A DNA stretch of 64,000 nucleotides from an uncultured bacterium (GTDB lineage: Bacteria; Krumholzibacteriota; Krumholzibacteriia; LZORAL124-64-63), in NCBI GenBank assembly GCA_963732385.1, contig CAVSZB010000003.1, positions 160,001 through 224,000 of the forward strand, in the 5' to 3' direction. This document shows positions 23,151 to 40,449 of this stretch, piece by piece (position 1 is the first letter of the stretch; every line of letters begins with the position of its first letter). A program made the translations under genes and the position numbers. A model generated the notes under the pieces. The model made no database searches. It saw nothing but the letters and a program-made list of their open reading frames with translations, and had not been told where the DNA came from.

Positions 23151-24647
23151 ATGGGTGAGCACGTGTTGTCCTGGATGACCTTCTTCCCCCTCCTCGGGGC
23201 GGCGGTGATCGCCTTCCTGCCCCGCGAGCGGAAGACGCTCATCAAGTACGTGGCGGCTGCGGCCACGGCCGTGCCGCTGCTGCTGGGCGTCCAGGTCTTC
23301 ATCGGCTTCGATCGCGGCACGGCGGCGATGCAGCTGGTGGAGAAAGCGGCCTGGATCCCGCCGTTCAACATCGAGTACTTCATGGGCGTCGATGGCCTGA
23401 GCGTGCCGATGGTGCTGCTGACGGCGCTGCTCTCGTTCATCTGCGTGATCGCCTCGTGGGGCATCGACAAGGCGCCCAAGGGCTATTTCTCGCTTTTCCT
23501 GCTGCTCGAGACCGGCATGATGGGCGTCTTCTGCGCGCTCGACTTCTTCCTCTTCTACATGTTCTGGGAAGTCATGCTTCTGCCGATGTACTTTCTCATC
23601 GGCATCTGGGGCGGGCCGCGCAAGGAATACGCCGCGATCAAGTTCTTCCTCTACACGCTCTCCGGTTCCGTGCTGATGCTGTTGGCGATGCTGGCGCTGT
23701 ACTTCAACGTGAAGGACCCCGCCACCGGAGGCCACACCTTCAACATGCTGCACATGATGAGCCAGGCCAACCACTCGCCCTGGCTGCTCGGAGGCCACGT
23801 GCGGCACCTCGTCTGGATGGCGCTGTTCATCGGTTTCGCCATCAAGGTGCCGATCTTCCCGTTCCACACCTGGCTGCCCGACGCCCACGTCGAGGCGCCG
23901 ACCGCCGTGTCGGTCATCCTGGCTGGCGTGCTGCTGAAGATGGGCACCTACGGCATTTTGCGGATCAGCTATCCGATGTTGCCGGACGCCGCGCGCTGGT
24001 TCGCGCTGCCGCTGGCGGTGCTGGGGATGATCAACATCATCTACGGCGCCTTCTGCGCCATGGCGCAAAGCGACATGAAGAAGCTGGTGGCCTATTCATC
24101 GATCAGCCATATGGGCTACGTGCTGCTCGGCATGGCGGCCTTCACGACGCAGGGCATCAACGGCGCCGTATTCCAGATGTTCAATCACGGCACGATCACC
24201 GCCATGCTGTTCCTCGGCGTCGGCGTGATCTACGACCGGGCGCATCATCGCCGGATCGACGGCTTCGGAGGCCTGATGCAGCAGATGCCGGTCTACGGCA
24301 GCGTCTTCTCGTTCGCCCTGTTCGCGGCGCTCGGCCTGCCGGGCCTGTCGGGATTCATCAGTGAGGCGCTGGTCTTCATGGGCGCCTTCCAGACGTTCCC
24401 CGTGATCACGATCATCAGCGGGCTCGGCATCGTCATCGGCGCGGCCTACGTGCTGTGGCTGTTGCAGCGGGTCTTCCTGGGCGAGAAGAATCCCCAGTAC
24501 GACAACCTGCCCGACATCAGCGCGCGCGAACTGGTGACGCTGGTGCCGATCGGCCTGATCGTCCTGCTGCTGGGCGTGTTCCCGATGCCGGTGTTGAATC
24601 TGATGAAGGTGACGTTGAACAACCTGATCACCGTCGTGGCCAACTGA
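23151..24647 (+). CDS. nuoM: NADH-quinone oxidoreductase subunit M
   Basis: 'FWEVMLLPMYFLIGIWG', 'KVPIFPFHTWLPDAHVEAPT', 'KKLVAYSSISHMG'. Confidence 0.95.
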   Translation: MGEHVLSWMTFFPLLGAAVIAFLPRERKTLIKYVAAAATAVPLLLGVQVFIGFDRGTAAMQLVEKAAWIPPFNIEYFMGVDGLSVPMVLLTALLSFICVIASWGIDKAPKGYFSLFLLLETGMMGVFCALDFFLFYMFWEVMLLPMYFLIGIWGGPRKEYAAIKFFLYTLSGSVLMLLAMLALYFNVKDPATGGHTFNMLHMMSQANHSPWLLGGHVRHLVWMALFIGFAIKVPIFPFHTWLPDAHVEAPTAVSVILAGVLLKMGTYGILRISYPMLPDAARWFALPLAVLGMINIIYGAFCAMAQSDMKKLVAYSSISHMGYVLLGMAAFTTQGINGAVFQMFNHGTITAMLFLGVGVIYDRAHHRRIDGFGGLMQQMPVYGSVFSFALFAALGLPGLSGFISEALVFMGAFQTFPVITIISGLGIVIGAAYVLWLLQRVFLGEKNPQYDNLPDISARELVTLVPIGLIVLLLGVFPMPVLNLMKVTLNNLITVVAN

Positions 24648-24675
24648 CCGGCCTCGCGCCAAGGAGGCGCCGCCC

Positions 24676-26181
24676 TTGACGCCGATTGCCCTGATCGCAC
24701 CGAGCTGGGGGGACCTGAGGCATTTTCTGCCCGAGACCGTCCTCGCGGCCACGTTCCTGCTGGCGCTGCTCGCCGACCTGGTCGTGCGGGGCCGTCGTCC
24801 GGCCGTGTCGTTCACCGTATCCCTGGCCGGCTGCCTGCTGGCGCTCGCGCTTGGCGTGGCCGGCCTGCCGGATCGCGCCCACGCCGTTCTCGGCTCATCG
24901 ATCGTCGTGGACGGGCTGGCCGGGTTCTTCCGCATACTGTTCGCCGGCGTGGCTGTCGTGACGATCCTGTTCTCCTGGGCCAGCGAGGAGATCATGGGTC
25001 GGCGCCGCGAGAACAAGGGCGAGTTCTACGCCCTGGTCGCGCTGATGACCTTCGGCATGTGCGTGATGGCCGAGGCGCGCGATCTGGTCATGCTTTACCT
25101 GTCCCTTGAGCTGACAAGCCTCACCAGCTACGTGATGGCCGGCTACATGCGCACCAGCCTCCGCTCGACCGAAGCGTCGTTGAAGTACGTCATTTTCGGC
25201 GCGGTCTCGTCGGGCATCATGCTCTACGGCCTTTCGCTTCTCTATGGCCTGACCGGCGCGGTGACGTTCGAGGGCATTCGCACGGCGCTGGTGGCCGGCC
25301 GCGCGGACAATTTTGCATTGCTCGTGGTGTTGGTTCTGGTCATGGTCGGCATGGGCTACAAAATCGCCGCGGTGCCGTTCCACTTCTGGTGTCCCGACGT
25401 CTACGAAGGGGCGCCGACGCCAGTGGCGGCCCTCTTTTCCGTGGGCCCGAAGGCGGCCGGCTTCGCGCTGATGATCCGCTTCTTCTACTCGACGCTGCTC
25501 GCCCCGAACGTTGGCGCGGCGCCCGGCGCGCTGGTCGGTCCGACCGACTGGCCGCTGCTCATCGCGGTGCTCTCGGTGGTGACGATGACCTACGGAAATC
25601 TCGTGGCGCTGCGCCAGACCAACGTCAAAAGGCTGCTCGCCTACTCCAGCATCGCCCACGTGGGCTATCTGCTGATGGGCTTTTTGATGCTTACGCGCGG
25701 CGGCCTGCAGGCGATCCTGTTCTATCTGCTGGTCTACGCGATCATGAATCTCGGCGCCTTCCTCTTCGTGATCGCGCTCAACAACCGCCTGCACAGCGAG
25801 GAGATCGACGACTACGCCGGACTCGGCTCGCGCGCCCCCGCGGCGGCGATCATGATGACGATCTTCCTCTTTTCGCTGACCGGCCTGCCGCCCACCGCCG
25901 GCTTCATCGGGAAGTTCTACCTTTTCGCCGAAGTGGTGAACCGCCACTACTTCTGGCTCGCGGTGATCGGCGCCCTCAACAGCGTGGTAAGCCTTTTCTA
26001 CTATATGAAAATCGTCAGGGCGATGTACTTCGCGCCCGGGTCGGGGGAGGAGATCCGTCTCGCGCCACTGCATTTGGCCGTGCTCGGACTGCTGGCGGCG
26101 CCGACCCTGCTGCTTGGCGTCTACTGGACGCCCCTGAAGGCACTGGCCGACCGGGCCATCGCCGCTTTTTCCCTGGGCTAG
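24676..26181 (+). CDS. nuoN: NADH-quinone oxidoreductase subunit N
   Basis: 'EASLKY', 'KIAAVPFHFWCPDVYEGAPTP', 'KRLLAYSSIAHVG', 'SLTGLPPTAGFIGK'. Confidence 0.95.
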   Translation: MTPIALIAPSWGDLRHFLPETVLAATFLLALLADLVVRGRRPAVSFTVSLAGCLLALALGVAGLPDRAHAVLGSSIVVDGLAGFFRILFAGVAVVTILFSWASEEIMGRRRENKGEFYALVALMTFGMCVMAEARDLVMLYLSLELTSLTSYVMAGYMRTSLRSTEASLKYVIFGAVSSGIMLYGLSLLYGLTGAVTFEGIRTALVAGRADNFALLVVLVLVMVGMGYKIAAVPFHFWCPDVYEGAPTPVAALFSVGPKAAGFALMIRFFYSTLLAPNVGAAPGALVGPTDWPLLIAVLSVVTMTYGNLVALRQTNVKRLLAYSSIAHVGYLLMGFLMLTRGGLQAILFYLLVYAIMNLGAFLFVIALNNRLHSEEIDDYAGLGSRAPAAAIMMTIFLFSLTGLPPTAGFIGKFYLFAEVVNRHYFWLAVIGALNSVVSLFYYMKIVRAMYFAPGSGEEIRLAPLHLAVLGLLAAPTLLLGVYWTPLKALADRAIAAFSLG

Positions 26182-26348
26182 GCGGCGCCCGGGAGCGTTT
26201 CTGCGGTTAGGTTGCGGCGGGATGGCACAACATGCGATCCCGCCGTTCCATGTCCGGCGGACGACGCGGGGGAAGCGGCGGATCCGGCCGTTCTGTGGCA
26301 TATTACTGATTGGTATTTGGGAGAGTCGGCCAGTCCGGGGAGGATCCC

Positions 26349-27155
26349 ATGCGATTGAGCGTACTGTTTCCACTGCTGTCGGTGTGCCTGTTCGCTTCAT
26401 CCTGCGCCACGGTGCCGATCACCGGACGACGGCAGCTCAGCCTGGTCCCCGAGTCGCAGATGATGGCCACGAGCTACCAGCAGTACGACGAGTTCATCAA
26501 GAGCAACCAGCTCAGCACCGACACCCGCCAGACCGCCCTGGTGCAGGGCGTCGGCCGGCGTGTCCAGGGGGCCGTCGAACAGTACTTCGCCCGGCAGGGA
26601 CAGACGCAGCGCCTGGCTGACTATCGCTGGGAGTTCAACCTCGTGGAGAGTCCGGAGGTGAACGCCTGGTGCATGCCGGGCGGCAAGGTGGTCGTCTATT
26701 CAGGACTGTTGCCGGTGGCGCAGAACGAGGCGGGTCTGGCCGTGGTCGTGGGCCATGAGATCGCGCACGCCATCGCCGACCATGGCGGCGAGCGCATGAG
26801 CCAGCAGCTTCTGGCACAGTTCGGCGGCCTGGCGCTCGACACGGCGCTGCAGAGCCGCCCCGACCAGACCCGCCAGCTCTGGATGGGCGTTTACGGCGCC
26901 GGAGCCCAGTACGGCGTACTGATGCCGTTCAGCCGGCAGCAGGAGAGTGAAGCGGACCGCCTCGGCCTTATCTTCATGGCCATGGCCGGCTACGACCCGC
27001 AAGAGGCGGTCACGTTCTGGACCCGCATGGCTGCGGCATCCGGCGGCCAGAAGCCGCCCGAATTCATGAGCACGCATCCGTCGGACGCAACGCGGATCGC
27101 CAACCTGAACAAGCTGCTGCCGGAGGCGACCGGGTACTTCCAGCAAAAGCCGTGA
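26349..27155 (+). CDS. M48 family metallopeptidase lipoprotein (Oma1/LoiP-like)
   Basis: GGAGG RBS; lipobox 'ASSC'; 'NAWCMPGG', 'HEIAH', 'ESEAD', 'STHPS'. Confidence 0.93.
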   Translation: MRLSVLFPLLSVCLFASSCATVPITGRRQLSLVPESQMMATSYQQYDEFIKSNQLSTDTRQTALVQGVGRRVQGAVEQYFARQGQTQRLADYRWEFNLVESPEVNAWCMPGGKVVVYSGLLPVAQNEAGLAVVVGHEIAHAIADHGGERMSQQLLAQFGGLALDTALQSRPDQTRQLWMGVYGAGAQYGVLMPFSRQQESEADRLGLIFMAMAGYDPQEAVTFWTRMAAASGGQKPPEFMSTHPSDATRIANLNKLLPEATGYFQQKP

Positions 27156-27194
27156 GAGAATTTCAGGCATCCGGATGTAGGCGTTCATAAGGGA

Positions 27195-27259
27195 CGCACC
27201 AACAGAAGCGGCCCCCCCGTGCGGGGGGGCCGCTCCCTTCAGACTCGGCCGTGAAGCAA
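27195..27259. repeat. ~65-bp direct repeat, copy 1 of 4 (others at ~31048-31112, 36493-36556, 40450-40514), containing a minus-strand intrinsic terminator
   Basis: CGCACCAACAGAAGCGGCCCCCCCGTGCGGGGGGGCCGCTCCCTTCAGACTCGGCCGTGAAGCAA; 12-bp stem 27207-27234 followed by TCTGTT on the minus strand. Confidence 0.9.
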
Positions 27260-27264
27260 CCGGA

Positions 27265-30200
27265 TTACTTCACCAGCGTCATCTTCTCCATCTTCTCGTA
27301 GCTGCCGGCCTTCAGGCTGTAGAAGTACACGCCCGAGGAGACCGACTGACCGGTGGAGTTGCGGCCGTCCCAGATCACGGAGTGCGTCGTCGCATCCATG
27401 TTCTCGTTCAGCAGCGTCTTCACCAGTTCGCCGCGCACGTTGTAGATCTTCAGCTCAACCTGGCTCTTGGCCGGCAGGGTGAACTCGATCTTCGTGCTCG
27501 GGTTGAACGGGTTCGGGAAGTTCCTGGCCGTGAATACTGCCTCGGGCGTCACGCCCACTGCAGCCCCGCCAGGCAAATGACCGAAGAAGGCCAGAACGTC
27601 CTGCAAAATCTGGGTACGGACCGGGAGCCCGCCGGTCGGGGCGCCGTTCCAGATGTAGCTCAGGTCGTAGGGCATGAAAACGACGCGGGCCGTGTTCGCC
27701 GTGACGTTGTTGTAGACCGCCGCCGCGTACGGGTAGACCCCGAGGGCGCCGGTCGGGCTGGTGAACTGGGCAATCCGGACCGCCGGAGCAACCACGGTGA
27801 TGGCGTCAAAGTCGTTGATGCCGCCCTCACAGCCACCCTGCACCATGTAGGGCTTGGTCAGCACCGGCGCGTCCGCCACGGTGATCGGGCTCACGTGTGG
27901 CGTCAGCTGGCCACCAATGAGCGGCGCGAGGTAGAAGTTGTTGTATGTGACCCCGAACCACTTGTCCCTGAAGGCAACCGCGTTGACGCCGGAGGCCGAC
28001 AGGTCCTGGATGATGTTATCGCCGGTGGCAAAGAAGTTCTTGCCGCCCTGCTGCAGCCAGGAATCCACCACGTAGATATCGTTGCCGGAATCCGCTTTCT
28101 TAATATCCCCGTTGGAGAGCGTAATAGAGCCCAGATTTCCGGGAGTGTAAAGCAACGTGTTGTAACCGGACATCTGCAGCGCGTTCGTCCGGCCGCCGAG
28201 GCCGTTGCCCAGGCCGGAGGACGGGCCGGCATTGCAGTAGATGTCATAGTCGATGCCCTGACGGAAGCCGAGATTGTCCAGGGCAGCGAACCACTCATCC
28301 TGGTTGGCGCGGTCCTGAGAATCGTCCCAGAACAGCAGGTGAGGCTGCCCAACGTCCTTCTCCGCCGTAATCAGCGTCGGCAGGGCGTCAATCTTGTAGA
28401 GTTCATAATAGCGGTACGAGTCGTAGTGCAGGTCGCCAGGGAAATAGGCGAAACCGGTGGTATCCCTGGGCATATGCGTGACACCGGGAACCCCGCCCAC
28501 GGAGTCCTCGGCTCTGAAGTAGTAATGGAAACTGTCGCCGGGGAAGAAGAACCCGGTGTCGGGCAGGTCGAATTGATAGAGGTTCGGCAAGCGGACTGGC
28601 GGAACGGACGTATTCCAGACCGTGTCGCCGACCACGGTGCCGTAGAGATAATTACCGTCCTGGGTAAAGCCGGCCGGAATGGCCGTACGGCAGGTGGAGT
28701 CGAACAGAGGATTCATCTTCATCTTGACGTGCATGGTGGGCCGACCGGTAAGCACAGCACCGTTGCGGACCGCCTTGACTGTCACGACGACAGAGTCGCC
28801 AATGTCGCTCTCGAGAGTGTCGATGTTCTGCGCGATGTCCACGCGCACGGAATTTTTGGTCAGATCCGCATAGTCGATTTCAGGATTTTCCGGCCAGCCG
28901 TCGTTGAACAGGTCCCAGGCACCCAACACCGTAATCGTGGGGCCATAGAAGGGGAAGGCGCACAGCATCACGTTGTCGAAATACGGTGCCGGCGTGTTAT
29001 CGTTGCCGAGATAATCATCGGGCCACGTCTCGTTCACGCCCAGCGAGATCTGGACCGCATTGCGGCCGGCGTTCAGCAGGGCGGTCACCGGAGTTGCATA
29101 CGGAAAGCGGCCATACGAGGCCAGGCCGCCGCCGTAGTACACGGTATTGAAATCCTTCCAGCCGCCGGGCCAGGTGAGCCCGCCGTCCATGGAGGTGCGG
29201 ATGCCAAAGAAGTAGAAGATCCCGTTGGAGAGCGGAAGGTGGGTGTAATTGTCCCAAGTGTAATTGGCGCCGTCGTAACCCCCATCAGCACCCCCGGGCC
29301 ATTCCATTACAGGGGACCAGACGTTGTTGTTGATCGCGTAAGTGTCGCCGGCGAGACCACCGGTCGTCGTCACGCCCCAGCCACCGGGGCCGTAGTTCCA
29401 GGTCGTGCACTGGGTGCCGCCCGTTCCGGGGACCACGATGCCATCGTCGATGAACGCCATTTGCGGTGTGCTGTTGGTGTTGCACTCGTCGGCGTCCCCC
29501 AGCAACGGCCACACCTTGTGGAATTCGCCGACATACGGCGGCTTGACGTTGACCCAGTGCACCGGATCGCCGGGCTGGAAAGTATCATAAGTCTGCCGCA
29601 CCTCTGCGTGCAGTTTGCCGAACAGCACCTCGATGTTGTCGAGCTGCGCGAGGCCATTGCTGGGCCAGAAGCAGTCGCCGTCGGACCAGCCGCCATCGGA
29701 AAAACCTAGCCAGCGCAGGTGGATCTCGTTGTTGAGGTCCCCGACGTAGCTGTCCGGTTCTACGGTGAAGGCCACTGCCACAGCCACGGCGACATTCACG
29801 CCGTCCCAGGCGCTCGTCGGTTTCGCCTGTTCCATAACGCCGAGCTTCTCGACCTGGAGAATCAGATAGTCGTAGCGCTTCTCGGAGTTGGAGTTGAAAA
29901 TCGCCCTCACGGTGACGTCCGTGGGCACGGTATTGTCCACGACCTGGCCGTACCAATCGAGCCAAAGGTTGTAGTTGTTGTCGTAGCCTTCGAGCGGATC
30001 CTCTGGACTGCAGGATCCGGAGAAAACCTCACCGCACCACATGGCGAGGTTGGCGGCGCCGAGTGGATCCAGGTTCGCGCAATTGTAGTCGGAGATGTGC
30101 CAGATGGCCGTCATGTTCGTATAGTCTTTGCCGGTCCACCCCTGGTCGTCCGCAACCCCCAAAGCAGTCTGGAACTTGCCGTCCAGCCGGGCCGGGCCGC

Positions 30201-30396
30201 CCATGATATAAACTGTATCGGCCGCAGCCTTGCCGCTGCTTATGGGCCCGCCAGAAAGTATGCTGGTGTCGGCGCCCCTGGCGTCAAATATGTGACGCTG
30301 GGCCTGTTGACTGTCATCCCTGGAAGAATCGTCAGCGATAGCGAGGCTGGCGAAGAGCGCCAGAGACAGACATACGGTAAATGTGAGTCTCTTCAT
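27265..30396 (-). CDS. Large secreted protein with FlgD-Ig/T9SS-like CTD, paralogue 1 of 3 (function unknown; possible surface-layer protein)
   Basis: Signal peptide MKRLTFTVCLSLALFASLAIA; ~1040 aa; CTD 'NFPNPFNPSTKIEF...WDGRN...SGVYFY...KMTLVK'. Confidence 0.85.
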   Translation of the reverse strand: MKRLTFTVCLSLALFASLAIADDSSRDDSQQAQRHIFDARGADTSILSGGPISSGKAAADTVYIMGGPARLDGKFQTALGVADDQGWTGKDYTNMTAIWHISDYNCANLDPLGAANLAMWCGEVFSGSCSPEDPLEGYDNNYNLWLDWYGQVVDNTVPTDVTVRAIFNSNSEKRYDYLILQVEKLGVMEQAKPTSAWDGVNVAVAVAVAFTVEPDSYVGDLNNEIHLRWLGFSDGGWSDGDCFWPSNGLAQLDNIEVLFGKLHAEVRQTYDTFQPGDPVHWVNVKPPYVGEFHKVWPLLGDADECNTNSTPQMAFIDDGIVVPGTGGTQCTTWNYGPGGWGVTTTGGLAGDTYAINNNVWSPVMEWPGGADGGYDGANYTWDNYTHLPLSNGIFYFFGIRTSMDGGLTWPGGWKDFNTVYYGGGLASYGRFPYATPVTALLNAGRNAVQISLGVNETWPDDYLGNDNTPAPYFDNVMLCAFPFYGPTITVLGAWDLFNDGWPENPEIDYADLTKNSVRVDIAQNIDTLESDIGDSVVVTVKAVRNGAVLTGRPTMHVKMKMNPLFDSTCRTAIPAGFTQDGNYLYGTVVGDTVWNTSVPPVRLPNLYQFDLPDTGFFFPGDSFHYYFRAEDSVGGVPGVTHMPRDTTGFAYFPGDLHYDSYRYYELYKIDALPTLITAEKDVGQPHLLFWDDSQDRANQDEWFAALDNLGFRQGIDYDIYCNAGPSSGLGNGLGGRTNALQMSGYNTLLYTPGNLGSITLSNGDIKKADSGNDIYVVDSWLQQGGKNFFATGDNIIQDLSASGVNAVAFRDKWFGVTYNNFYLAPLIGGQLTPHVSPITVADAPVLTKPYMVQGGCEGGINDFDAITVVAPAVRIAQFTSPTGALGVYPYAAAVYNNVTANTARVVFMPYDLSYIWNGAPTGGLPVRTQILQDVLAFFGHLPGGAAVGVTPEAVFTARNFPNPFNPSTKIEFTLPAKSQVELKIYNVRGELVKTLLNENMDATTHSVIWDGRNSTGQSVSSGVYFYSLKAGSYEKMEKMTLVK

Positions 30397-30897
30397 GTTT
30401 TCCCCCAAACGTTGATCAAATCAACGCAATCAAGGTTGCGCACACGTCACCGGCCGCCACTCACTCAGCCGGGCGCAATTCAAGGGAGGCCAAAGTTCAT
30501 TCCCGCACAGTTGCGCGGCGCAAAGCCGGGCGAGAAATGAAGCTTACCTCCTTCGAATTGGAACGTGGGCGTATGGAACTTAGCAACAGTACCGAATGTC
30601 AAGTGCGCGGACGGCTGAGAGAGTGGAACCCAAAGACAGCGCGCATTGCACGAACTTTTGCCCATGAGCCACTACATGAGTCACAAAGGTGAGATTGGCC
30701 TCCTTTTCGTTTTGTGTGTTTGGTGCGGTCGCAAAAGCATCCTTCTCCAAACCCTCCCTAACCTCAATGCCAGGCCAAGACCGGAATGGTCCAGACAGCA
30801 GCGCGGCACTGACGATAGGCCCAGCAGCAGGTCGGCGAGGATGGTATTGCAGAGTCTTCCCGTCGGGCTTTGCCCGCGGGAATCAGCGAGGATCCTC

Positions 30898-30927
30898 AGA
30901 TTACCAGATTGCCCTTCCCTCTGTCAA
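30898..30927 (-). promoter_or_regulatory. sigma70-like promoter in the conserved upstream spacer of paralogue 1
   Basis: TTGACA-N18-TAATCT with extended -10 TG; equivalents at 36345-36373 and 40300-40329. Confidence 0.55.
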
Positions 30928-31047
30928 CGGTCCCCTGCATGGAAGTGGGGAATAACTTCACTGCTTATTATTAAACTTGCCGTTTCGCCATATATAAGAA
31001 CCTTTTAGGTTTGGCATTGTCTCGAGTTGTGAAATCCCCGGATCGGG

Positions 31048-31112
31048 CGCACCAACAGAAGCGGCCCCCCCGTGCGGGGGGGCCGCTCCCTTCAGACTCG
31101 GCCGTGAAGCAA
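31048..31112. repeat. ~65-bp direct repeat copy 2 (terminator of paralogue 2, now separated from it by the IS)
   Basis: Matches copy 1; hairpin 31060-31087. Confidence 0.9.
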
Positions 31113-31220
31113 CCGGATTAGACATAATGGAACGGCTGGGCCCCTCGGGTATCGTGTGTTAGTCCGCACGGACCAGGGACACTAGGGAGCCGAAACTCCC
31201 GCTCACGAAAGGACCCAGCC

Positions 31221-32336
31221 ATGACACACGATAGCACAGCGACCGTTTGGGTGGGCATGGATGTTCACCAGGAGTCCATCACCGCGGCGATCCTCTTTGG
31301 AGACAAGGACATCCCGGAGATTGTCCGGTTGCCAGGGGACCTCAACGCGGTTCGCCGGCTCTTCCGCCGCTTGACCAAGCAGGGCTCCCCGCGGGCATGC
31401 TACGAGGCCTCGGGTGCAGGCTACGTCCTGCAGCGGGCCCTGGACCACGATGGGTTCCAGTGCGAGGTGATCGCCCCGAGTCTGATCCCCCGCTGCCCGG
31501 GCGATCACCGCAAGACCGATCGCCTGGATGCCGTGCGCTTGGCGCGCATGTATCGCAGCGGCCATCTGCGGGCGGTGACGATACCAGATGAGGAGCAAGA
31601 GGCGGTACGCCAGCTCGTGCGATGCCGACTGTCGCTGCAGCGTCAGATCGTGCGCAGCAAGCATCGGATCGTCCGGGTGCTGGCTACCCACGGACATCGT
31701 TTCACCGGGACCAAAAGCAATTGGACGAAGCAGCATCGCGCCTGGCTGGCCACGTTGCGCCGCGAGATGACGGGCCCGCTGCAGACGGTCCTGGCCTACG
31801 ACCTCGACCACCTGGAGTACCTCGAGTCTCAGCAGCGGTCGCTCGACGCCGAGATCGAGCAGTGGTCCTGTCGCGAGCCCTGGCGGGCGACCGTCGAGGC
31901 GCTGCAGTGCTTCCGCGGCATCAAGACCCTGACGGCGATGACGTTGGTCACCGAGATCGGAGACATCCGTCGCTTCAGTCACCCGGACCGGCTGATGGGG
32001 TACACGGGGTTGGTGTCAAAGGAGCACTCCAGCGGCGAGCAACAACATCGTGGTTCGATCACCAAGGCGGGCAACACATTCCTAAGACGGATCCTAGTCG
32101 AAGCCGCTTGGCACTACCAGTACAGGGTAGGCTCGACCTTGATCCTCGATCGCCGCCGGATGGGTCAGGATCCTGAAATGGTCGCGATCGCCGTGAAGGC
32201 CCAGCATCGACTCGGCAGGCGATTCCATCACCTGGAGAAGACGAAGCATCGCAACAAGGTCGCCGTCGCGGTGGCCCGTGAACTGAGTGGATTCGTGTGG
32301 GCCGCGATGTGGGTCGCAGCCACGAAGCAACACTAG
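31221..32336 (+). CDS. IS110 family transposase/recombinase (DEDD RuvC-like + Tnp20 domain)
   Basis: 'VGMDVH', 'YEAS', 'KTDRLDA' DEDD residues; 'GIKTLTAMTLVTEIGD', 'HSSG', 'GSITKAGN', 'AVARE'. Confidence 0.95.
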   Translation: MTHDSTATVWVGMDVHQESITAAILFGDKDIPEIVRLPGDLNAVRRLFRRLTKQGSPRACYEASGAGYVLQRALDHDGFQCEVIAPSLIPRCPGDHRKTDRLDAVRLARMYRSGHLRAVTIPDEEQEAVRQLVRCRLSLQRQIVRSKHRIVRVLATHGHRFTGTKSNWTKQHRAWLATLRREMTGPLQTVLAYDLDHLEYLESQQRSLDAEIEQWSCREPWRATVEALQCFRGIKTLTAMTLVTEIGDIRRFSHPDRLMGYTGLVSKEHSSGEQQHRGSITKAGNTFLRRILVEAAWHYQYRVGSTLILDRRRMGQDPEMVAIAVKAQHRLGRRFHHLEKTKHRNKVAVAVARELSGFVWAAMWVAATKQH

Positions 32337-32346
32337 GACGCTGAGT

Positions 32347-32507
32347 GGAGCAGGGACCGGTCAGGGGAATCCTCGTTTGAAGTATGCGGCAGGCCATGAG
32401 CTGGACCCGCGGTGTTAGACGGAGGTCACCCCGAGACGGACAGAATTGTGTGCGGTAACCAACCCGCGGATATCAGTCTGATCAACCGTCGTTGCAGTCC
32501 CTGCTCC
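32347..32507 (+). ncRNA. Putative bridge/seekRNA of the IS1111-type element
   Basis: 11-bp enclosing stem GGAGCAGGGAC/GTCCCTGCTCC; two TGCGG...CCGCG stem modules with internal loops matching the target (TGAAGTA) and the predicted circle junction (ATATCAG). Confidence 0.7.
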
Positions 32508-32526
32508 CAACAACCAGGCGTAAGAA

Positions 32527-32550
32527 GGGCCCCGGCTGTCGCCGGGGCCC
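32527..32550 (-). terminator. IS-borne hairpin oriented to stop transcription entering from the right flank
   Basis: GGGCCCCGGC-TGTC-GCCGGGGCCC, followed by TTCTTA on the minus strand. Confidence 0.6.
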
Positions 32551-32591
32551 CCGAGGAGCGCACTAATCAACGTTTGACTAGCCGTTCCATA

Positions 32592-35500
32592 TCACTTCAC
32601 CAGCGTCATCTTCTCCGTCTTCTCGTAGCTGCCGGCCTTCAGGCTGTAGAAGTACACGCCCGAGGAGACCGACTGACCGGTGGAGTTGCGGCCGTCCCAG
32701 ATCACGGAGTGCGTCGTCGCATCCATGTTCTCGTTCAGCAGCGTCTTCACCAGTTCACCGCGCACGTTGTAGATCTTCAGCTCAACCTGGCTCTTGGCCG
32801 GCAGGGTGAACTCGATTTTCGTGCTCGGGTTGAAAGGATTCGGGAAGTTCCTGGCCGTGAACACTGCCGCGGGCGTCACGCCCACTGCAGCCCCGCTAGG
32901 CAACTTGCCGAAGAAGGCCAGAACGTCCATAAGGATCTGGGTACGGACCGCGATCCCGCCGGTCGGGGCCCCGTCCCAGATGATGCTCAGGTCGCAGGGC
33001 ATGAAAACGACGCGAGCCGTGTTGTCTGTGACGTTGTTGTAGACCGCCGCCGCGTACGGGTAGGCCCCGAGGGCGCCGGTCGGGCTGGTGAACTGGGCAA
33101 TCCGGACCGCCGGAGCGAGCGCGGTGACGGCGTCAAAGTCACTGATGAAGTTTGCACAGCCACCCTGCACCAGGTAGGACTTGGTCAGCACCGGCGCGTC
33201 CGCCACGGTGATCGGGCTCACGTGTGGCGTCAGCTGGCCACCAATAAGCGGCGCGAGGTTGAAGCCGTTGTATGCGACCTTGAACCACTTGTCTCTGAAC
33301 AGGACCGCGTTGACGCCGGAGCGTGACAGATCCTGGATGAGGTTATCTCCGGTGGCAAAGAAGTTCTTGCCGCCCTGATTCAGCCAGGCATCCAGACAGG
33401 CGATATCGTTGCCGGGATCGCCTTTTGTGGTGCTGGATATCGTATACGCGTCCAGGCTTCCTGAAGTGTAAAGCAACGTGTTGTAACCGGACATTTGCAG
33501 CGCGTTCGTCCGGCCGCCGAGGCCGTTGCCCAGGCCGGAGGACGGGCCGGCATTGCAGTAAATGTCATAGTCGATGCCCTGGCGGAAGCCGAGATTGTCC
33601 AGGGAAGAGAACCATTCATTCTGGTTGCTGCGGTCCTGGGAATCGTCCCAGAACAGCACTTCGGGCTGGACAAAGGTCGTATCACCCTTGTCCGGTGATA
33701 TCGTCATCGACATCGTCGGCAGAGCGTCAATCTTCCAGAGTTCATAATAGCAGTACGAGTCGTAGTGCAGGTCGCCCGGGAAATAGGAGAAGCCGGTGGT
33801 ATCTGTCGGCATGATCGTGACACCCTCAACCCCGCCCACGATGTCCGAGGCTCTGAAATAGTAGTGGAAACTGTCGCCGGGGAAGAAGAACCCGGTGTCG
33901 GGCAGGTCGAACTGGAAGAGGTTCGGCAGGCGAACCGGCGGAATGGACTCATTCCAGACCGTGTCGCCCAGCACGGTACCGTAGAGATAGGGACCGTCCT
34001 GGGTAAAGCCGGCCGGAATGGCCGTGCGGTAGGCGTCGAACAGGGGATTCATCTTCATCTTGACGTGCATGGTGGGCTGACCGGTAAGCACGGCGCCGTT
34101 GCGGACCGCCTTGACTGTCACGACGACAGAGTCGCCCGGAGTGTTGAGCACGTCGTCGGTGTTCCCGGCGATATCCACGCGCACCCAGTTCTGGGCCAGA
34201 TCCGTATAGTTGATTTCGGCATTTTCGGGCCAGCCGTCGTTGAACATGTTCCAATCACCATTGAACATGATCGCGGGCCCGCCGAAGGGGAAGGTGAGCA
34301 GCCTCACGTTGTCGAAATACGGTGCCGGCGTGTTGTCGTTGTTGGTATATTTATCGAGCCACGGCTCAGTTACGCCCAGCAGGATTTGGACCTTGTCGCG
34401 GCCGGAGTTCAGCAGGGAGGTCACTGCCTCGCCGTGCACGTAGTACTCGGCCAGAAGGCCGCCGTACCAGACGGTATTGAAATCCTTCCAGCCGCCGGGC
34501 CAGGTGAGACCGCCGTCCTTGGAGGTGCGGATGCCCCAGAAGTAGAAGATGCCGTTTTCGATCGGAAGGTGGGCGTAATTGTCCCACATTAAATAGCAGC
34601 CGTCGAAGCCTCCATCAGCGCCCCCGGGCCAATCCATAGGAGGTGACCAGACGCTGTTGTTGATCCCGTAAAGATCGCCGGCGAGACCACCGGTTGTCGT
34701 CACGCCCCAGCCACCGGGGCCGTAGTTCCAGGTCGTGCATTGAGTGCCGCCCGTCCCGGGGACCACAATGCCGTCGTCGATGAACGCCATTTGCGGCGTG
34801 TTGTTGCTGGCGCACACGTCGGCGTCCCCCAGCAACGGCCACACCTTGTGGAAATCTCCGACATACGGCGGTTTGACGTTGACCCAGTGCACCGGATCGC
34901 CGGGCTGGAAAGTATCATAAGTCTGCCGCACCTCAGCGTGCAGCTTGCCGAACAGCACCTCGATGTTGTCGAGCTGCGCGAGGCCATCGCTGGGCCAATA
35001 GCAGTCGTCGTCGGACCAGGCGCCGTCGGAATAACCGAGCCAGCGCAGGTGGATCTCGTTGTTGAGGTCCCCGACGTAGCAGTCCGGTTCTACGGTGAAG
35101 GCCACTTCCACAGCCACGGCGACATTCACGCCGTCCCAGGCGCTCGTCTTGCCCGCCTGTTCCATAACGCCGAGCTTCTCGACCTGGAGAATCAGATAGT
35201 CGTAGCGCTTCTCGGAATTGGAGTTGAAAATCGCTCTTACGGTGACGTCCGTGGCCACGGTATTGCTCGCGACCTGGCCGTACCAATCGAGCCAAAGGTT
35301 GTAGCCGTTAGCGTAGCCTTCGACCGGGTCCTCTTCGGTGCAGCTCGCTGCAAAAGTCTCGCCGCACCACATGGCGAGGTTGGCGGCGCCGAGGGGATCC
35401 AGGTTCGCGCAATTGTAGTCGGAGATGTGCCAAAAGGCCGTCATGTTCGTGATGTCCTTGCCGGTCCATCCCTGATCGTCCGGCACCAATGCCTTGGTTG

Positions 35501-35732
35501 AAGTCTGGAACTTGCCGTCCAGCCGGTCCGGGCCGCCCATAATATAAACTGTATCGGCCGCGGCTTTGCCGCTGCTCACGGGCCCGCCAGTAAGCGCGCT
35601 GTTGATGGCGCCCCTGGCGTTAAACGGGTAAAGCCGGCCCTGTCCGCTGTCATCCCTGGAAGAATCGCCAGCGATCGCGAGGCTGGCGAAGAGCGCCAGA
35701 GACAGACATACGGAAAATGTGAGTCTCCTCAT
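32592..35732 (-). CDS. Large secreted FlgD-Ig/T9SS-like CTD protein, paralogue 2 of 3
   Basis: 1046 aa, colinear with paralogues 1 and 3; TGA stop lies at the IS junction. Confidence 0.85.
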   Translation of the reverse strand: MRRLTFSVCLSLALFASLAIAGDSSRDDSGQGRLYPFNARGAINSALTGGPVSSGKAAADTVYIMGGPDRLDGKFQTSTKALVPDDQGWTGKDITNMTAFWHISDYNCANLDPLGAANLAMWCGETFAASCTEEDPVEGYANGYNLWLDWYGQVASNTVATDVTVRAIFNSNSEKRYDYLILQVEKLGVMEQAGKTSAWDGVNVAVAVEVAFTVEPDCYVGDLNNEIHLRWLGYSDGAWSDDDCYWPSDGLAQLDNIEVLFGKLHAEVRQTYDTFQPGDPVHWVNVKPPYVGDFHKVWPLLGDADVCASNNTPQMAFIDDGIVVPGTGGTQCTTWNYGPGGWGVTTTGGLAGDLYGINNSVWSPPMDWPGGADGGFDGCYLMWDNYAHLPIENGIFYFWGIRTSKDGGLTWPGGWKDFNTVWYGGLLAEYYVHGEAVTSLLNSGRDKVQILLGVTEPWLDKYTNNDNTPAPYFDNVRLLTFPFGGPAIMFNGDWNMFNDGWPENAEINYTDLAQNWVRVDIAGNTDDVLNTPGDSVVVTVKAVRNGAVLTGQPTMHVKMKMNPLFDAYRTAIPAGFTQDGPYLYGTVLGDTVWNESIPPVRLPNLFQFDLPDTGFFFPGDSFHYYFRASDIVGGVEGVTIMPTDTTGFSYFPGDLHYDSYCYYELWKIDALPTMSMTISPDKGDTTFVQPEVLFWDDSQDRSNQNEWFSSLDNLGFRQGIDYDIYCNAGPSSGLGNGLGGRTNALQMSGYNTLLYTSGSLDAYTISSTTKGDPGNDIACLDAWLNQGGKNFFATGDNLIQDLSRSGVNAVLFRDKWFKVAYNGFNLAPLIGGQLTPHVSPITVADAPVLTKSYLVQGGCANFISDFDAVTALAPAVRIAQFTSPTGALGAYPYAAAVYNNVTDNTARVVFMPCDLSIIWDGAPTGGIAVRTQILMDVLAFFGKLPSGAAVGVTPAAVFTARNFPNPFNPSTKIEFTLPAKSQVELKIYNVRGELVKTLLNENMDATTHSVIWDGRNSTGQSVSSGVYFYSLKAGSYEKTEKMTLVK

Positions 35733-36492
35733 GTTTTCCCCCTAACGTTGATCCAATCAACGCAATCAAGGTTGCGCACACGTCACCGGCGGCCACTCAC
35801 TAACTCAGCCGGGAGCAAATCAAGGGAGGCCAAAGTTCATTCCCGCACAGTTTCGCGGCGCAAAGCCGGGCGAGAAATGAAGCTTACCTCCTTCGAATTG
35901 GAACGTGGGCGTATGGAACTTAGCTACAGTACCGAATGTCAAGTGCGCGGACGACTGAGAGAGTGGAACCCAGGGACAGCGCGCATTGCACGAACTTTTG
36001 CCCATGAGCCACTACATGAGACACAAAGGTGAGATTGGCCTCCTCTGTATATTTGGTGGGGAATGATGCAATTTGGAGCAACAGCAGCAGAAAGGGCTTG
36101 GGCGGGGGCATATCGACCCGAGCCATCGACCACGGCTTCGCCAGTCCTAAAGCCACATCGTCGAACCGCTCGGTCGCAAACACATCCATCTCCAGGCCCC
36201 TCTCTAAGCCTCAATGCCAGGCCAAGACCGGAATGGTCCAAACAGCGGCGCAGCACTGACGATAGGCTCAGCAGCAGGGCGGCGAGGATGGTATTGCAGA
36301 GACTTCCTGCCGGACTCTTCCCACGGGAAGCAGCGAGGAACATGAGGTTACCAAATTGCCGCCTCTCTGTCAACGGTCCCTGCATGGAGGTGAAGAACAA
36401 TCTCACCGTCTGTTATTAAATTTACCCTTTCGCCATATATGCAAACCTCTTAGGTTGGGCATTGTCGCTGTTTGTGAAATCCCCGGATCGGG

Positions 36493-36556
36493 CGCACCAA
36501 CAGAAGCGGCCCCCCGTGCGGGGGGGCCGCTCCCTTGAGACTCGGCCGTGAAGCAA
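36493..36556. repeat. ~65-bp direct repeat copy 3 (terminator of paralogue 3)
   Basis: Near-identical to copy 1 (one C fewer in the run; TTGAGA instead of TTCAGA). Confidence 0.9.
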
Positions 36557-36561
36557 CCGGA

Positions 36562-39500
36562 TCACTTCACCAGCGTCATCTTCTCCATCTTCTCGTAGCT
36601 GCCGGCCTTCAGGCTGTAGAAGTACACGCCCGAGGAGACCGACTGACCGGTGGAGTTGCGGCCGTCCCAGATCACGGAGTGCGTCGTCGCATCCATGTTC
36701 TCGTTCAGCAGCGTCTTCACCAGTTCACCGCGCACGTTGTAGATCTTCAGCTCAACCTGGCTCTTGGCCGGCAGGGTGAACTCGATTTTCGTGCTCGGGT
36801 TGAAAGGATTCGGGAAGTTCCTGGCCGTGAACACTGCCTCGGGCGTCACGCCCACTGCAGCCCCGCCAGGCAAATTGCCGAAGAAGGCCAGAACGTCCAT
36901 AAGGATCTGGGTACGGACCGCGATCCCGCCGGTCGGGGCGCCGTCCCAGATATTGCTCAGGTCGTAGGGCATGAAAACGACGCGAGCCGTGTTTTCTGTG
37001 ACGTTGTTGTAGACCGCCGCCGCGTACGGGTAGGCCCCGAGGGCGCCGGTCGGGCTGGTGAACTGGGCAATCCGGACCGCCGGAGCAAGCGCGGTGACGG
37101 CGTCAAAGTCACTGATGTAGTTTGCACAGCCACCCTGCACCAGGTAGGACTTGGTAAGCACAGGCGCGCCCGCGACGGTGATCGGGCTCACGTGCGGTGC
37201 AACCTGGCCGCCGATGAGCGGCGCGAGGTTGAAGCCGTTGTATGCGACCTTGAACCACTTGTCTCTGAACAGGACCGCATTGACGCCGGAGCGTGAGATG
37301 TCCTGGATGAGGTTATCTCCGGTGGCAAAGAAGTTCTTGCCGCCCTGATTCAGCCAGGCATCCAGACAGGCGATATCGTTGCCGGGATCGCCTTTTGTGG
37401 TGCTGGATATCGTATACGCGTCCAGGCTTCCTGAAGTGTAAAGCAGCGTGTTGTAACCGGACATTTTCAGCGCGTTCGTCCGGCCGCCGAGGCCGTTGCC
37501 CAGGCCGGAGGACGGGCCGGCATTGGCGTAAATGTCATAGTCGATGCCCTGGCGGAAGCCGAGATTGTCCAGGGAAGAGAACCATTCATTCTGGTTGCCG
37601 CGGTCCGCGGAATCGTCCCAGAACAGCAGGTGAGGCTGCCCAACGTCCTTCACCGCCGTGATCATCGTCGGCAGAGCGTCGACCTTCCAGACTTCATAAT
37701 AGCGGTACGAGTCGTAGTGCAGATCGCCAGGGAAATAGGAGAAACCGGTGGAATCCCTGGGCATTTGCGAGACACCGACAACCCCGCCCACGGTGTCCTC
37801 GGCTCTGATGTAGTAGTGGAAACTGTCGCCGGGGAAGAAGAACCCGGTGTCGGGCAGGTCGAACTGGAAGAGGTTCGGCAGGCGAACCGGCGGGATGGAC
37901 TCATTCCAGACCGTGTCGCCCAGCACGGTACCGTAGAGATAGGGACCGTCCTGGGTAAAGCCGGCCGGAATGGCCGTGCGGTAGGCGTCGAACAGGGGAT
38001 TCATCTTCATCTTGACGTGCATGGTGGGCGGACCGGTAAGCACGGCGCCGTTGCGGACCGCCTTGACTGTCACGACGACAGAGTCGCCCGGAGTGTTGGC
38101 AACGTCGTCGGTGTTCCCGGCGATGTCCACGCGCACCCAGTTCTGGGCCAGATCCGTATAGTTGATTTCGGCATTTTCGGGCCAGCCGTCGTTGAACAAG
38201 GCCCACTCACCCGTCACCGACAGCGCGGGCCCCCCGAAGGGGTAAACGGCCAGCGCCACGTTGTCGAAGTACGGCGACGGCGTGTTATCGTTGCTGAGAT
38301 ATTTATCGAGCCAGGGCTCAGTCACGCCCAACGAGAGCTGGACCGCGTTGCGGCCGGAGTTCAGCAGGGAGGTCACTCCATACCAGTCGCGGTAGTACTC
38401 ACCCAGGACGCCGCCGTAGATCACGGTATTGAAATCCTTCCAGCCTCCGGGCCAGGTGATGCCGCCGTCTTTGGAAGTGCGGATGCCCCAGAAGTAGAAG
38501 ATCCCGTTATCGATCGGGAGGTGGTTGTAAACGTCCCACAGGAAAGTGGCGCCGTCGTAGCCCCCATCAGCGCCCCCGGGCCAGGCCATTACGGGGGAAA
38601 TGACGCTGTTGTTGATCCCGTAAAGATCGCCGGCGAGACCACCGGTTGTCGTCACGCCCCAGCCACCGGGGCCGTAGTTCCAGGTCGTGCATTGAGTGCC
38701 GCCCGTCCCGGGGACCACAATGCCGTCGTCGATGAACGCCATTTGCGGCGTGTTGTTGCTAAGACACACGTCGGCGTCCCCCAGCAACGGCCACACCTTG
38801 TGGAATTCGCCGACATACGGCGGTTTGACGTTGACCCAGTGCACCGGATCGCCGGGCTGGAAAGTATCATAAGTCTGCCGCACCTCAGCGTGCAGCTTGC
38901 CGAAGAGCACCTCGATGTTGTCGAGCTGCGCGAGGCCATCGCTGGGCCAATAGCAGTCGCCGTCGGACCAGCCGGTGTCGGAATAACCGAGCCAGCGCAG
39001 GTGGATCTCGTTGTTGAGATCCCCGACGTAGCTGTCCGGTTCTACGGTGAAGGCCACTTCCACAGCCACGGCGACATTCACGCCGTCCCAGGCGCTCGTC
39101 TTGCCCGCCTGTTCCATAACGCCGAGCTTCTCGACCTGGAGAATCAGATAGTCGTAGCGCTTCTCGGAATTGGAGTTGAAAATCGCTCTTACGGTGACGT
39201 CCGTGGCCACGGTATTGCTCGCGACCTGGCCGTACCAATCGAGCCAAAGGTTATAGTTGTTATCGTAGCCTTCGACCGGATCCACTTCACTGCAGGATCC
39301 GGAGAAAACCTCGCCGCACCACATGGCGAGGTTGGCGGCGCCGAGGGGATCCAGGTTCGCGCAATTGTAGTCGGAGATGTGCCAGGTTGCCGTCATGTTC
39401 GTGTCGTCATTGCCGGTCCATCCCTGATCGTCAGGCACCAATGCCTTGGTCGAAGACTCGAACTTTCCGTCCAGCCGGTTCGGTCCGCCCATGATATAAA

Positions 39501-39684
39501 CTGAATCGACGGCGGCCTTGCCGCTGCTCACGGGCCCGCCAGTAAGCGCGCTGTTGTTGGCGCCCCTGGCGTTAAACGGGTAAAGCCGGGCCTGTCCGCT
39601 GTCATCCCTGGAAGAATCGTCGGCGATCGCGAGGCTGGCGAAGAGCGCCAGAGACAGACATACGGTAAATGTGAGTCTCTTCAT
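36562..39684 (-). CDS. Large secreted FlgD-Ig/T9SS-like CTD protein, paralogue 3 of 3
   Basis: 1040 aa, same signal peptide and CTD as paralogue 1. Confidence 0.85.
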   Translation of the reverse strand: MKRLTFTVCLSLALFASLAIADDSSRDDSGQARLYPFNARGANNSALTGGPVSSGKAAVDSVYIMGGPNRLDGKFESSTKALVPDDQGWTGNDDTNMTATWHISDYNCANLDPLGAANLAMWCGEVFSGSCSEVDPVEGYDNNYNLWLDWYGQVASNTVATDVTVRAIFNSNSEKRYDYLILQVEKLGVMEQAGKTSAWDGVNVAVAVEVAFTVEPDSYVGDLNNEIHLRWLGYSDTGWSDGDCYWPSDGLAQLDNIEVLFGKLHAEVRQTYDTFQPGDPVHWVNVKPPYVGEFHKVWPLLGDADVCLSNNTPQMAFIDDGIVVPGTGGTQCTTWNYGPGGWGVTTTGGLAGDLYGINNSVISPVMAWPGGADGGYDGATFLWDVYNHLPIDNGIFYFWGIRTSKDGGITWPGGWKDFNTVIYGGVLGEYYRDWYGVTSLLNSGRNAVQLSLGVTEPWLDKYLSNDNTPSPYFDNVALAVYPFGGPALSVTGEWALFNDGWPENAEINYTDLAQNWVRVDIAGNTDDVANTPGDSVVVTVKAVRNGAVLTGPPTMHVKMKMNPLFDAYRTAIPAGFTQDGPYLYGTVLGDTVWNESIPPVRLPNLFQFDLPDTGFFFPGDSFHYYIRAEDTVGGVVGVSQMPRDSTGFSYFPGDLHYDSYRYYEVWKVDALPTMITAVKDVGQPHLLFWDDSADRGNQNEWFSSLDNLGFRQGIDYDIYANAGPSSGLGNGLGGRTNALKMSGYNTLLYTSGSLDAYTISSTTKGDPGNDIACLDAWLNQGGKNFFATGDNLIQDISRSGVNAVLFRDKWFKVAYNGFNLAPLIGGQVAPHVSPITVAGAPVLTKSYLVQGGCANYISDFDAVTALAPAVRIAQFTSPTGALGAYPYAAAVYNNVTENTARVVFMPYDLSNIWDGAPTGGIAVRTQILMDVLAFFGNLPGGAAVGVTPEAVFTARNFPNPFNPSTKIEFTLPAKSQVELKIYNVRGELVKTLLNENMDATTHSVIWDGRNSTGQSVSSGVYFYSLKAGSYEKMEKMTLVK

Positions 39685-40449
39685 GTTTCCCCCTAACGTT
39701 GATTCGATTCAACGCAATCAAGGTTGCGCACACGTCACCGGCTGCCACTTACTAACTCAGCCGGGAGCAAATCAAGGGAGGCCAAAGTTCATCCCCGCAC
39801 AGTTTCGCGGCGCAAAGCCGGGCGAGAAATGAAGCTTATCTCCTTCAAGCTGGAACGTGGGCGAGTGGAACTTGGCAACAGTGCAACAGTACCGAATGTC
39901 AAGTGCGCGGACGACTGAGAGAGTGGAGCCCAGGGACAGCGCGCATCGCACGAACTTTTGCCCATGAGCCACTACATGAGTCACAAAGGTGAGATCGCCT
40001 CCTCTGAATATTTTGGTGGAGAATGATGCAATTTGGAGCAGCAGCAGCAGAAAGGGCTTGGGCGGGGGCATATCGACCCGAACCATCGACCACGGCTTCG
40101 CCAATCCCAAAGCCAAGCCGAACCGCTCGGTCGCAATCACACCCATCTCCAAGACCTCTCTAACCTCAATGCCAGGCCAAGACCGGAATGGTCCAAACAG
40201 CGGCGCAGCACTGACGATAGGCTCAGCAGCAGGTCGGCGAGGATGGTATTGCAGAGTCTTCCCGTCGGACTTTGCCAACGGGAAGCAGCGAGGATACTCA
40301 GATTACCAGATTGCCCTTCCCTCTGTCAACGGTCCTCTACATGGAAGTGGGGAATAATCTCACCGTCTGTTATCAAATTTGCCCCTTCGCTATATATGCA
40401 AACCTCTTAGGTTGGGCATTGTCTCGAGTTGTGAAATCCCCGGATCGGG

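Follow-up and report, generated by a model that had tools for sequence, protein, structure and literature searches.

Among the closest described systems to the element reported here are the bridge recombinases IS621 and ISCro4 (IS622) and the seekRNA elements of the IS1111 group. According to the sections of the published accounts that deal with them (PMC11208160, PMC11208158, PMC13626964, and bioRxiv 10.1101/2025.05.14.653916), IS621 and IS622 have a two-loop RNA with a long 5' and a short 3' guide in each loop, a recombinase combining DEDD residues with a serine, and, in their own numbering, a donor core CT, a cut 3' of the T, handshake-like letters, and a junction promoter. IS621 is described as cutting 3' of the T in its CT core and exchanging that strand first (passages of PMC11208158 and PMC13626964), with the handshake guide placed right after the donor guide (passage of PMC11208158), and engineered IS621 and IS622 pairs were chosen with identical cores (design passages of PMC11208160 and bioRxiv 10.1101/2025.05.14.653916). 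For the IS1111 elements ISEc11, ISKpn4, ISPa11, ISPst6, and IS4321, PMC11187229 gives subterminal repeats, a 7-nt left extension, a 3' noncoding region, an RNA whose match to the top strand is 5' of its match to the bottom strand, insertion without target duplication, a junction promoter, transposases of 330 to 350 aa, and targets that are REPs, attC sites, or transposon ends. In the corresponding parts of PMC11208160, the subterminal inverted repeats of the group measure 7 to 17 bp, right-end bridge RNAs are predicted for 93% of IS1111s, and ISCARN28 is one of six elements with a modelled bridge RNA (Extended Data Fig. 10c).

The window analysed here, 64,000 nucleotides of a contig from an uncultured Krumholzibacteriota bacterium, contains an element that resembles both groups. 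It shares the IS621/IS622 features listed above, in part by prediction, and differs in that its RNA lies downstream of the gene (theirs is upstream), it has 11-bp subterminal repeats, its target is a stop codon and not a REP, and core position 8 is usually not the same in target and donor. With the seekRNA elements it has in common all of the listed features, the junction promoter as a prediction, except transposase length (371 aa here) and target. Our main reading, to which we give a probability of about 0.88, is that this is an IS110-family element with a predicted bridge RNA whose target loop matches the last codon and stop codon of secretion-tail (FlgD_ig/T9SS) genes and whose donor loop matches the element's own right end. 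The RNA itself is of an already known type, since right-end bridge RNAs are so widely predicted among IS1111s; the mechanism, too, has been published, and the element appears from its sequence to work like a bridge recombinase. The element and its surroundings comprise the following features:

31120–32593, plus strand: whole insertion sequence, 1,474 bp, with an A common to element and target at 31120 or 32594
31120–31126, plus strand: 7-nt left extension outside the subterminal repeat, holding donor positions 3–9 and most of the predicted -10 box
31127–31137, plus strand: left subterminal inverted repeat ATGGAACGGCT, 11 bp, 7 nt inside the left end
31221–32336, plus strand: IS110-family DEDD recombinase, 371 aa (Pfam DEDD_Tnp_IS110 and Transposase_20; NCBIfam NF033542)
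32527–32550, plus strand: G+C-rich hairpin 3' of the RNA; read on the strand of the host gene, it closely follows the new stop
32580–32593, plus strand: right subterminal repeat AGCCGTTCCAT (32580–32590, 3 nt inside the right end) and 3-nt extension ATC
32592–35732, minus strand: host gene, 1,046 aa, with a C-terminal FlgD_ig/T9SS type A tail, ending MTLVK and then TGA, the last two stop letters coming from the element
31118–31120, minus strand: displaced original host stop TAA at the left junction, in the same context as the empty paralogue at 27262–27272
27262–27272, plus strand: empty target, with its sequence context, in the paralogous gene 27265–30408 (stop TAA)

We delimit the element as 31120–32593, with one base in common with the target, because three copies of identical sequence occur in the genome, each between different flanks, because paralogous genes have empty sites (27262 in the window and on two other contigs of the genome), and because contigs from two of three public runs join 31119 to 32594, skipping 1,474 bases with 1 letter ambiguous, and thus represent exact empty alleles. 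Comparison of empty and filled alleles reveals no repeats at the very ends and no target duplication beyond the one shared base. Within the element, the recombinase ORF is flanked by 101 bp of noncoding DNA upstream and 257 bp downstream; hairpins similar to that at 32527–32550 are seen in several homologues.

The recombinase scores 239 bits against NCBIfam NF033542 (cut-off, 140) and has the domain composition that defines IS110 elements, an N-terminal DEDD RuvC-like domain and a C-terminal PF02371 domain with a catalytic serine. Residues D14, E62, D100, D103, and S271 are invariant in an alignment of 11 homologues, and S271 aligns to the serine loop of IS621, the overall likeness to IS621 being weak (E 3e-7). 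The best named relatives are ISSfr2 and ISEc45 (42.6% and 39.5% transposase identity), and in a quick tree with long-branch warnings, computed without IS1111 itself, ISEc11, and ISCARN28, the window transposase falls with both in a 35-row branch (SH-aLRT, 99) and with its stop-seeking relatives of 55–95% identity in a branch of their own (23 rows; SH-aLRT, 99). IS4321 and IS5708 are far away in this tree and only 26% identical, over ∼240 aa. The element has the 11-bp subterminal repeats, 7-nt left extension, long downstream noncoding region, and guide order (top-strand match 5' of bottom-strand match) of the IS1111 type, and ISCARN28, by eye, has the same domain-row motifs and stands next to ISEc45 and ISSfr2 in the part of the PMC11187229 source-data matrix that covers them. 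The transposase, in contrast, lies outside the narrow definition of IS1111 in the same source (330–350 aa and full-length relatedness). The label IS1111 in the original prediction thus suits the ends, the RNA position, and the guide order, but not the transposase, which is 40–43% identical to ISEc45 and ISSfr2 as against 26% to IS4321 and IS5708; judged from sequence, the element is an IS110-family member of the ISSfr2/ISEc45/ISCARN28 subgroup with IS1111-type ends. An ISSfr2-annotated locus and four other plasmid loci have, by eye, the same 3' RNA layout. Inspected in the same way, ISSfr2 and ISEc45 loci have right ends that do not spell a stop, unlike those of the window element's branch with its stop-codon targets.

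Homologues were collected as a set of 147 loci (one contributing search supplied the best 80 of 483, together with those of its pattern-scan hits that were among the matches listed), 123 of them matching at 50% or more. Together with the third genome copy these gave 124 rows, of which 25 were not parsed by the end-finding patterns and 11 were duplicates, leaving 88. The patterns accepted a left end only if it had AGA and a right end only if it had one of four words. One locus with an ambiguous right end (L053) was left out of most counts, and the left flank of L083 (another element's end) and the left end of L143 (miscalled) were left out of the covariation counts. To allow for kinship, associations were also scored in independent pairs on a FastTree tree of the transposases. 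Matches at E<=1e-80 occur in 32 of 208 genomes of a sample of the phylum, and the named records among the relatives include Candidatus Krumholzibacteriia, Fibrobacteraceae, Eisenbacteria, and others.

The features of the predicted RNA are as follows:

32347–32507, plus strand: predicted bridge/seek RNA, an outer stem around a target arm and a donor arm, starting 10 bases behind the recombinase ORF
32347–32357 and 32497–32507, plus strand: outer stem GGAGCAGGGAC / GTCCCTGCTCC, a perfect 11-bp inverted repeat
32378–32384, plus strand: 5' target guide TGAAGTA, corresponding to two bases of the penultimate codon, the last codon AAG, and the first two stop letters of the host gene
32385–32389 and 32407–32411, plus strand: closing stem of module 1, TGCGG / CCGCG
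32414–32417, plus strand: 3' target guide, its last 3 letters TTA being complementary to the stop codon, with the 4th weak
32418–32420, plus strand: GAC following the target guide, where core/handshake pairing to the left end as it comes in is predicted (a concept from the relevant part of PMC11208158)
32442–32450, plus strand: 5' donor strand, which across the family matches the left end one position out of register; in this copy the match is weak (3 of the first 6)
32451–32455 and 32464–32468, plus strand: closing stem of module 2, TGCGG / CCGCG
32470–32475, plus strand: 3' donor guide ATATCA, equal to the last 6 bases of the right junction
32476–32478, plus strand: GTC after the donor guide, predicted handshake, its middle letter tracking the middle base of the target's last codon

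The original prediction described an 11-bp outer stem enclosing two modules, each closed by TGCGG and CCGCG, and all of these strings are present at the positions it gave. Folding of the plus strand of 32347–32507 gives -70.5 kcal/mol (z, -3.25), and 1 of 200 shuffles is as good; the single-sequence minimum-energy structure itself mispairs both loops and the guide strands, and it was dropped in favour of a covarying consensus in which the loops are open. That consensus, built from 79 distinct homologue RNA regions, consists of an outer stem and two arms, each with an internal loop, and its 29 pairs are formed in 97.6% of cells, a value favoured by the derivation of the structure from the same 79-row alignment. 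Changes on both sides are found in 16 of the 29 pairs, a level reached by none of 500 shuffles, and slid controls are 36–58% paired, so that the comparison with homologues suggested at the outset bears out the two-loop fold. A scan of 26000–42000 against Rfam yielded no match to the RNA and only a sub-threshold sX6 elsewhere. A short likeness links 31170–31193, in the left noncoding end, to the RNA start (32330–32357), and this left copy could compete for the 3' stem arm of the RNA. The RNA is partly deleted in four homologue loci (L015, L012, L052, and L142), and a contig from one public run (X2) joins the left end to the RNA with the transposase skipped (31147–32342; 1,194 bases, with 10 other letters between and 29 letters on the short side), possibly a nonautonomous mini-element.

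At this locus considered singly, the guide matches say little. TGAAGTA is indeed the reverse complement of TACTTCA at 27266–27272, but the genome has 249 occurrences of it. Among 2,000 shuffles of the RNA, 393 achieve a 7-nt match to the 20-nt target window, 231 a 7-nt junction match, and 34 both together. The caution that came with the prediction, that the matches are only 6–7 nt, was well placed, the pair being barely above chance. That each match is reached by 12–20% of shuffles, in an RNA belonging to no Rfam family, is what would be expected if the matches were accidents of a G+C-rich hairpin region acting as a terminator or stability element. The homologues refute this, since the covariation is position-specific, involves both strands of the site, and is robust to relatedness, and we regard the chance explanation as having a negligible probability.

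The 10-nt 5' strand of loop 1 matches the bottom strand of the rebuilt target at positions 4–10 and not at 1–3 (n=57), with a total identity of 0.649 versus 0.495 when permuted and none of 20,000 permutations as good. Position by position from 4 to 10, identities are 0.98, 0.65, 0.95, 0.96, 0.70, 0.98, and 0.96, and the permuted values are 0.95, 0.36, 0.62, 0.58, 0.42, 0.98, and 0.73 (n=57 for both). Seven of seven letters agree in 30 of 61 elements and six of seven in 24, with one locus (L095) matching at only 3 of 7. Independent pairs give median p values of 0.004, 0.008, 0.004, and 0.0002 for positions 5–8, the last three being codon positions 1, 2, and 3; the stop letter gives 0.03 on each of the two target guides, the third-last letter of the 3' guide gives 0.008, and wrong-way pairs for the codon and stop-letter contrasts average at most 0.2. 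For the 3' target guide, the last three letters agree with the left flank at 0.91, 1.00, and 1.00, versus 0.51, 0.72, and 1.00 permuted (n=64). GTGTTA (32412–32417), proposed as the opposing guide, is therefore upheld clearly in its last three letters and faintly in the fourth from the end (0.47 versus 0.30), while the first two are at chance. The target loop thus varies together with both strands of the target, in independent pairs as well, and is not invariant across differing targets, the outcome that had been named as fatal to the prediction.

What the guide spells is the end of a gene. In 79 of 80 cases, it encodes the same amino acid as the one that ends the protein at the site (Lys, 55; Arg, 20; other, 5). 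Here, the TAA that formerly ended the host gene is found at the left junction, and TGA is supplied by the element end; because the element brings a new stop codon, the host protein is likely unchanged, so that a large multi-copy gene family would be a safe landing place. All three genome copies are at the stops of tail genes, and FlgD_ig or Por_Secre_tail is found in the target genes at 54 of 62 testable homologue sites (E<=0.01), the other 8 not being tail genes; the 62 are those long enough among 89 distinct right flanks, 23 being under 120 bases and 4 having an in-frame stop within 20 codons. Pfam FlgD_ig is matched 87 times in the genome, and 93 ORFs there end in our own profile of the tail, a family of ∼90 genes. 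The expectation that a natural target would be identifiable in the same window was correct as regards the empty site in the paralogue at 27262–27272, but it overlooked that the site belongs to a gene family of ∼90 members and is their stop codon.

The tail genes of the window form a tandem array (27265–40510, minus strand) of three near-identical ∼1,045-aa tail proteins with repeated spacers, in which a further copy of the downstream hairpin lies at ∼40460–40514; two more paralogues of these proteins are on other contigs (C4 and C7). Beside the array, at 23151–26181 and 26310–27155, are two large ORFs, which we take to encode membrane proteins resembling NADH-quinone oxidoreductase subunits M and N, and a Peptidase_M48 gene (Pfam).

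The guides are loose. The same RNA is found behind TAA and TAG, a 98.6%-identical copy with no listed guide change is behind a TGA stop in one public run (X4), and 164 empty sites in the genome fit TGAARTAR, of which only 8 are tail-gene stops. A guided element might insert wherever the 8–10-nt guide fits, with only the harmless insertions persisting, so that the tail-stop preference would be mainly a survival filter. Because 141 of the 156 other fitting sites lie inside stop-free frames of at least 250 codons, survival may explain much of the preference, and the 8 of 62 scanned homologue sites that are not tail genes are in keeping with this, as is the behavior of hairpins: a terminator hairpin was considered as a targeting cue and rejected, because element left flanks fold no better than other fitting sites (p 0.35; G+C differs between the sets). 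Against it, all three genome copies are at tail stops, though these make up 11 of 167 fitting sites; 69 of 72 sites have a T at position -8 relative to the stop, which the matched guide does not cover; and the guide keeps spelling Lys or Arg plus a stop across the tree, so that selection acts at least on the guide. The T at -8 narrows the 164 fitting sites to 42 with all 8 tail stops retained, and it may be an extra targeting cue or only reflect a hydrophobic codon. We consider a preference owed mainly to survival a serious but doubtful alternative, at about one chance in three, to a preference specified by the element.

The stop is supplied by the element end in 84 of 85 elements, although this count, like the invariance of the end letters, is partly built in because the end patterns demanded those letters. 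The stop that is sought differs from the one supplied in 74 of 81 elements (7 the same versus 23 expected by permutation; Fisher p 2e-6), with p 0.25–0.5 in independent pairs. As a lead only, this swap may reflect avoidance by the element of its own junction as a target. In one locus (L083), a TAG-seeking element sits in the TAG of another element's right-end remnant, a natural right-end/left-end junction, which shows that the right ends of such elements can be hit.

The donor arm is more equivocal. The 3' donor guide is identical to the right end in 75 of 78 elements, and its variable dinucleotide agrees with the right end in 79 of 79, with only 3–5 independent switches (p 0.25). ATATCAG (32470–32476), predicted to equal the circle junction, does equal the right and left ends joined, but its last G is outside the variable guide and is invariant in our parse. 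The 5' donor strand covaries with the left end in the shifted register (0.446 versus 0.275 permuted), not significantly in independent pairs; a register ending on the TA/CA dinucleotide shows no covariation (0.222 versus 0.225), and shifts of -2, -1, 2, and 3 are at chance level. The donor match TG of the prediction fails, as only 19 of 82 elements show complementarity to the junction dinucleotide there, which is chance.

These figures bear on whether the donor arm is used at all. In the seekRNA model, the target arm alone is needed, the protein reads the subterminal repeats of 11 bp, and the donor arm plays an accessory part or is removed by trimming; for ISEc11, an 82-nt seekRNA is sufficient and more efficient than the long form in the experiments described in the relevant section of PMC11187229. 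The 3/6 match of the 5' donor strand in this copy, donor covariation resting on 3–5 switches, and a locus at a tail stop lacking the 3' donor guide (L052) would fit such a model, although L052 may have lost its donor piece after insertion. The donor-arm stems, however, are 99–100% paired in the 79 homologues, the 3' donor strand follows the right end almost throughout, and a donor-arm letter tracks the target's last codon, as handshake pairing predicts. A dispensable donor arm is therefore improbable in our judgement, and a donor loop that specifies the right end is preferred.

The handshake-like letter just mentioned is the second after the donor guide, the position of the IS621 handshake guide; in 72 of 79 elements it agrees with the base in the middle of the last codon of the target (median p 0.016 in independent pairs). 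A matching handshake between the target arm and the left end was rejected: the third letter of the target-arm GAC follows the left end in 50 of 72, yet p is 0.6–1 in independent pairs. A G comes after each of the two 3' guides (87 of 87 and 84 of 84, these Gs also being used as anchors), and this G would pair with the donor's C. In IS621 numbering on the host sense strand, the donor has TCT at positions 7–9 in 67 of 67 elements (built into the parse) and GATAT (57), AGTAT (21), or AATAT (3) at positions 10–14. At target position 9 stands the stop codon's T. Position 8, where the last codon has its third base (G 45, A 24, C 9, and T 2 of 80), therefore usually differs from the donor's C. The TA and CA first read as a shared core are positions 9–10 in this numbering, and that reading does not hold, since one base alone is common to target and donor and the dinucleotides differ between the junctions in 54 of 67 elements, with one odd end.

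Because the target loop fits the codon and stop and the donor loop fits the right end, the element likely inserts behind the stop-codon T and completes a new stop. By analogy with IS621, as described in the mechanistic sections of PMC11208158 and PMC13626964, the element would leave as a circle whose joined ends form a promoter, TTGACT-17-CATAAT, driving the recombinase and the RNA; one recombinase dimer would hold each loop, and the host sense strand and the donor would be cut 3' of the T and then exchanged. The donor core would be CT as in IS621, and the stop would be finished by GA, AG, or AA from the right end; cleavage following the T would reproduce both observed junctions. The promoter boxes, predicted to be functional only with the ends joined, are:

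31123–31128, plus strand: predicted -10 box CATAAT
32574–32579, plus strand: predicted -35 box TTGACT, 17 nt from CATAAT once the ends are joined

A strict pattern for this promoter fits 24 of 68 homologues, 20 of them with 17-nt spacing, and a promoter scan of the linear stretch found none. No circle joint was seen among the assembled contigs of 6 distinct public runs, and no transcription of the stretch in the assembled contigs of public RNA runs X19 and X20, which hold 5–6% of its words, X19 covering only scattered diverged pieces.

A broader reading extends this to the clade, as a renewable safe harbour at the ends of secretion signals: any stop's T would do before the cut, the guide would be rewritten with Lys/Arg codons and stop type, the element's end would be held to stop-completing letters and would usually swap the stop, leaving its own junction unsuitable as a target, cores would be unequal, a further cue beyond the RNA would single out true gene ends, and a second lineage would behave alike at another motif. 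This composite is tentative, and we put it somewhat below even odds. The second lineage is represented by an IS110 element 41% identical to the first, on a separate branch and with the same RNA layout (G000:C6:53883-55399; C5 near 377573; L147; L025), which sits at the stop of genes ending W-x-x-x-K-x-x-Y-R. Sixteen ORFs of the genome end in this motif, and in two of them the second element's right end follows; one member of the main clade (L049) has switched to the same motif.

No description of stop-codon targeting with stop restoration was found in our searches of an open-access library, the stop-codon passages in the portions of PMC3196728 and PMC2516522 that came up being unrelated. IS900 is cited as targeting translation initiation signals (Doran 1997, as cited in a passage of PMC8141618), and ISEc21 targets conserved codons of IS3 transposases (section on that element in PMC11187229); start signals in the one and a disrupted catalytic codon in the other contrast with this clade, in which the host stop codon is struck and restored. 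What is added is a natural, many-times-repeated reprogramming series for a branch of bridge recombinases untried at the bench, in which sequence alone fixes guide registers, a handshake position, and the core mismatches that are tolerated. To this comes a target class of which those searches gave no description: the element inserts without a scar at the stop of genes from a secreted-protein family of ∼90 and rebuilds that stop. Should a single T be all that target and donor must have in common, the design space for bridge editing would be wider, and insertion at a stop codon offers a natural model for placing cargo behind a gene with the protein unaltered.

Several places in the genome may record earlier events. 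At 9050–9073, a fourth tail gene ends in a Lys codon plus TGATATGGAACG, of which 12 bases are identical to the element right end and behind which the transposase is absent, likely the scar of a lost copy. In a third paralogue (36557–36567), TGA stands in place of the TAA of the others, the context being the same, a single change to the letter that the element supplies, which could be either an excision footprint or a neutral change. On another contig (C7 near 425130, minus strand), a left-end-like word stands beside a right-end-like word in an A+T-rich patch, apparently in or beside an ORF, and is either a relic or chance.
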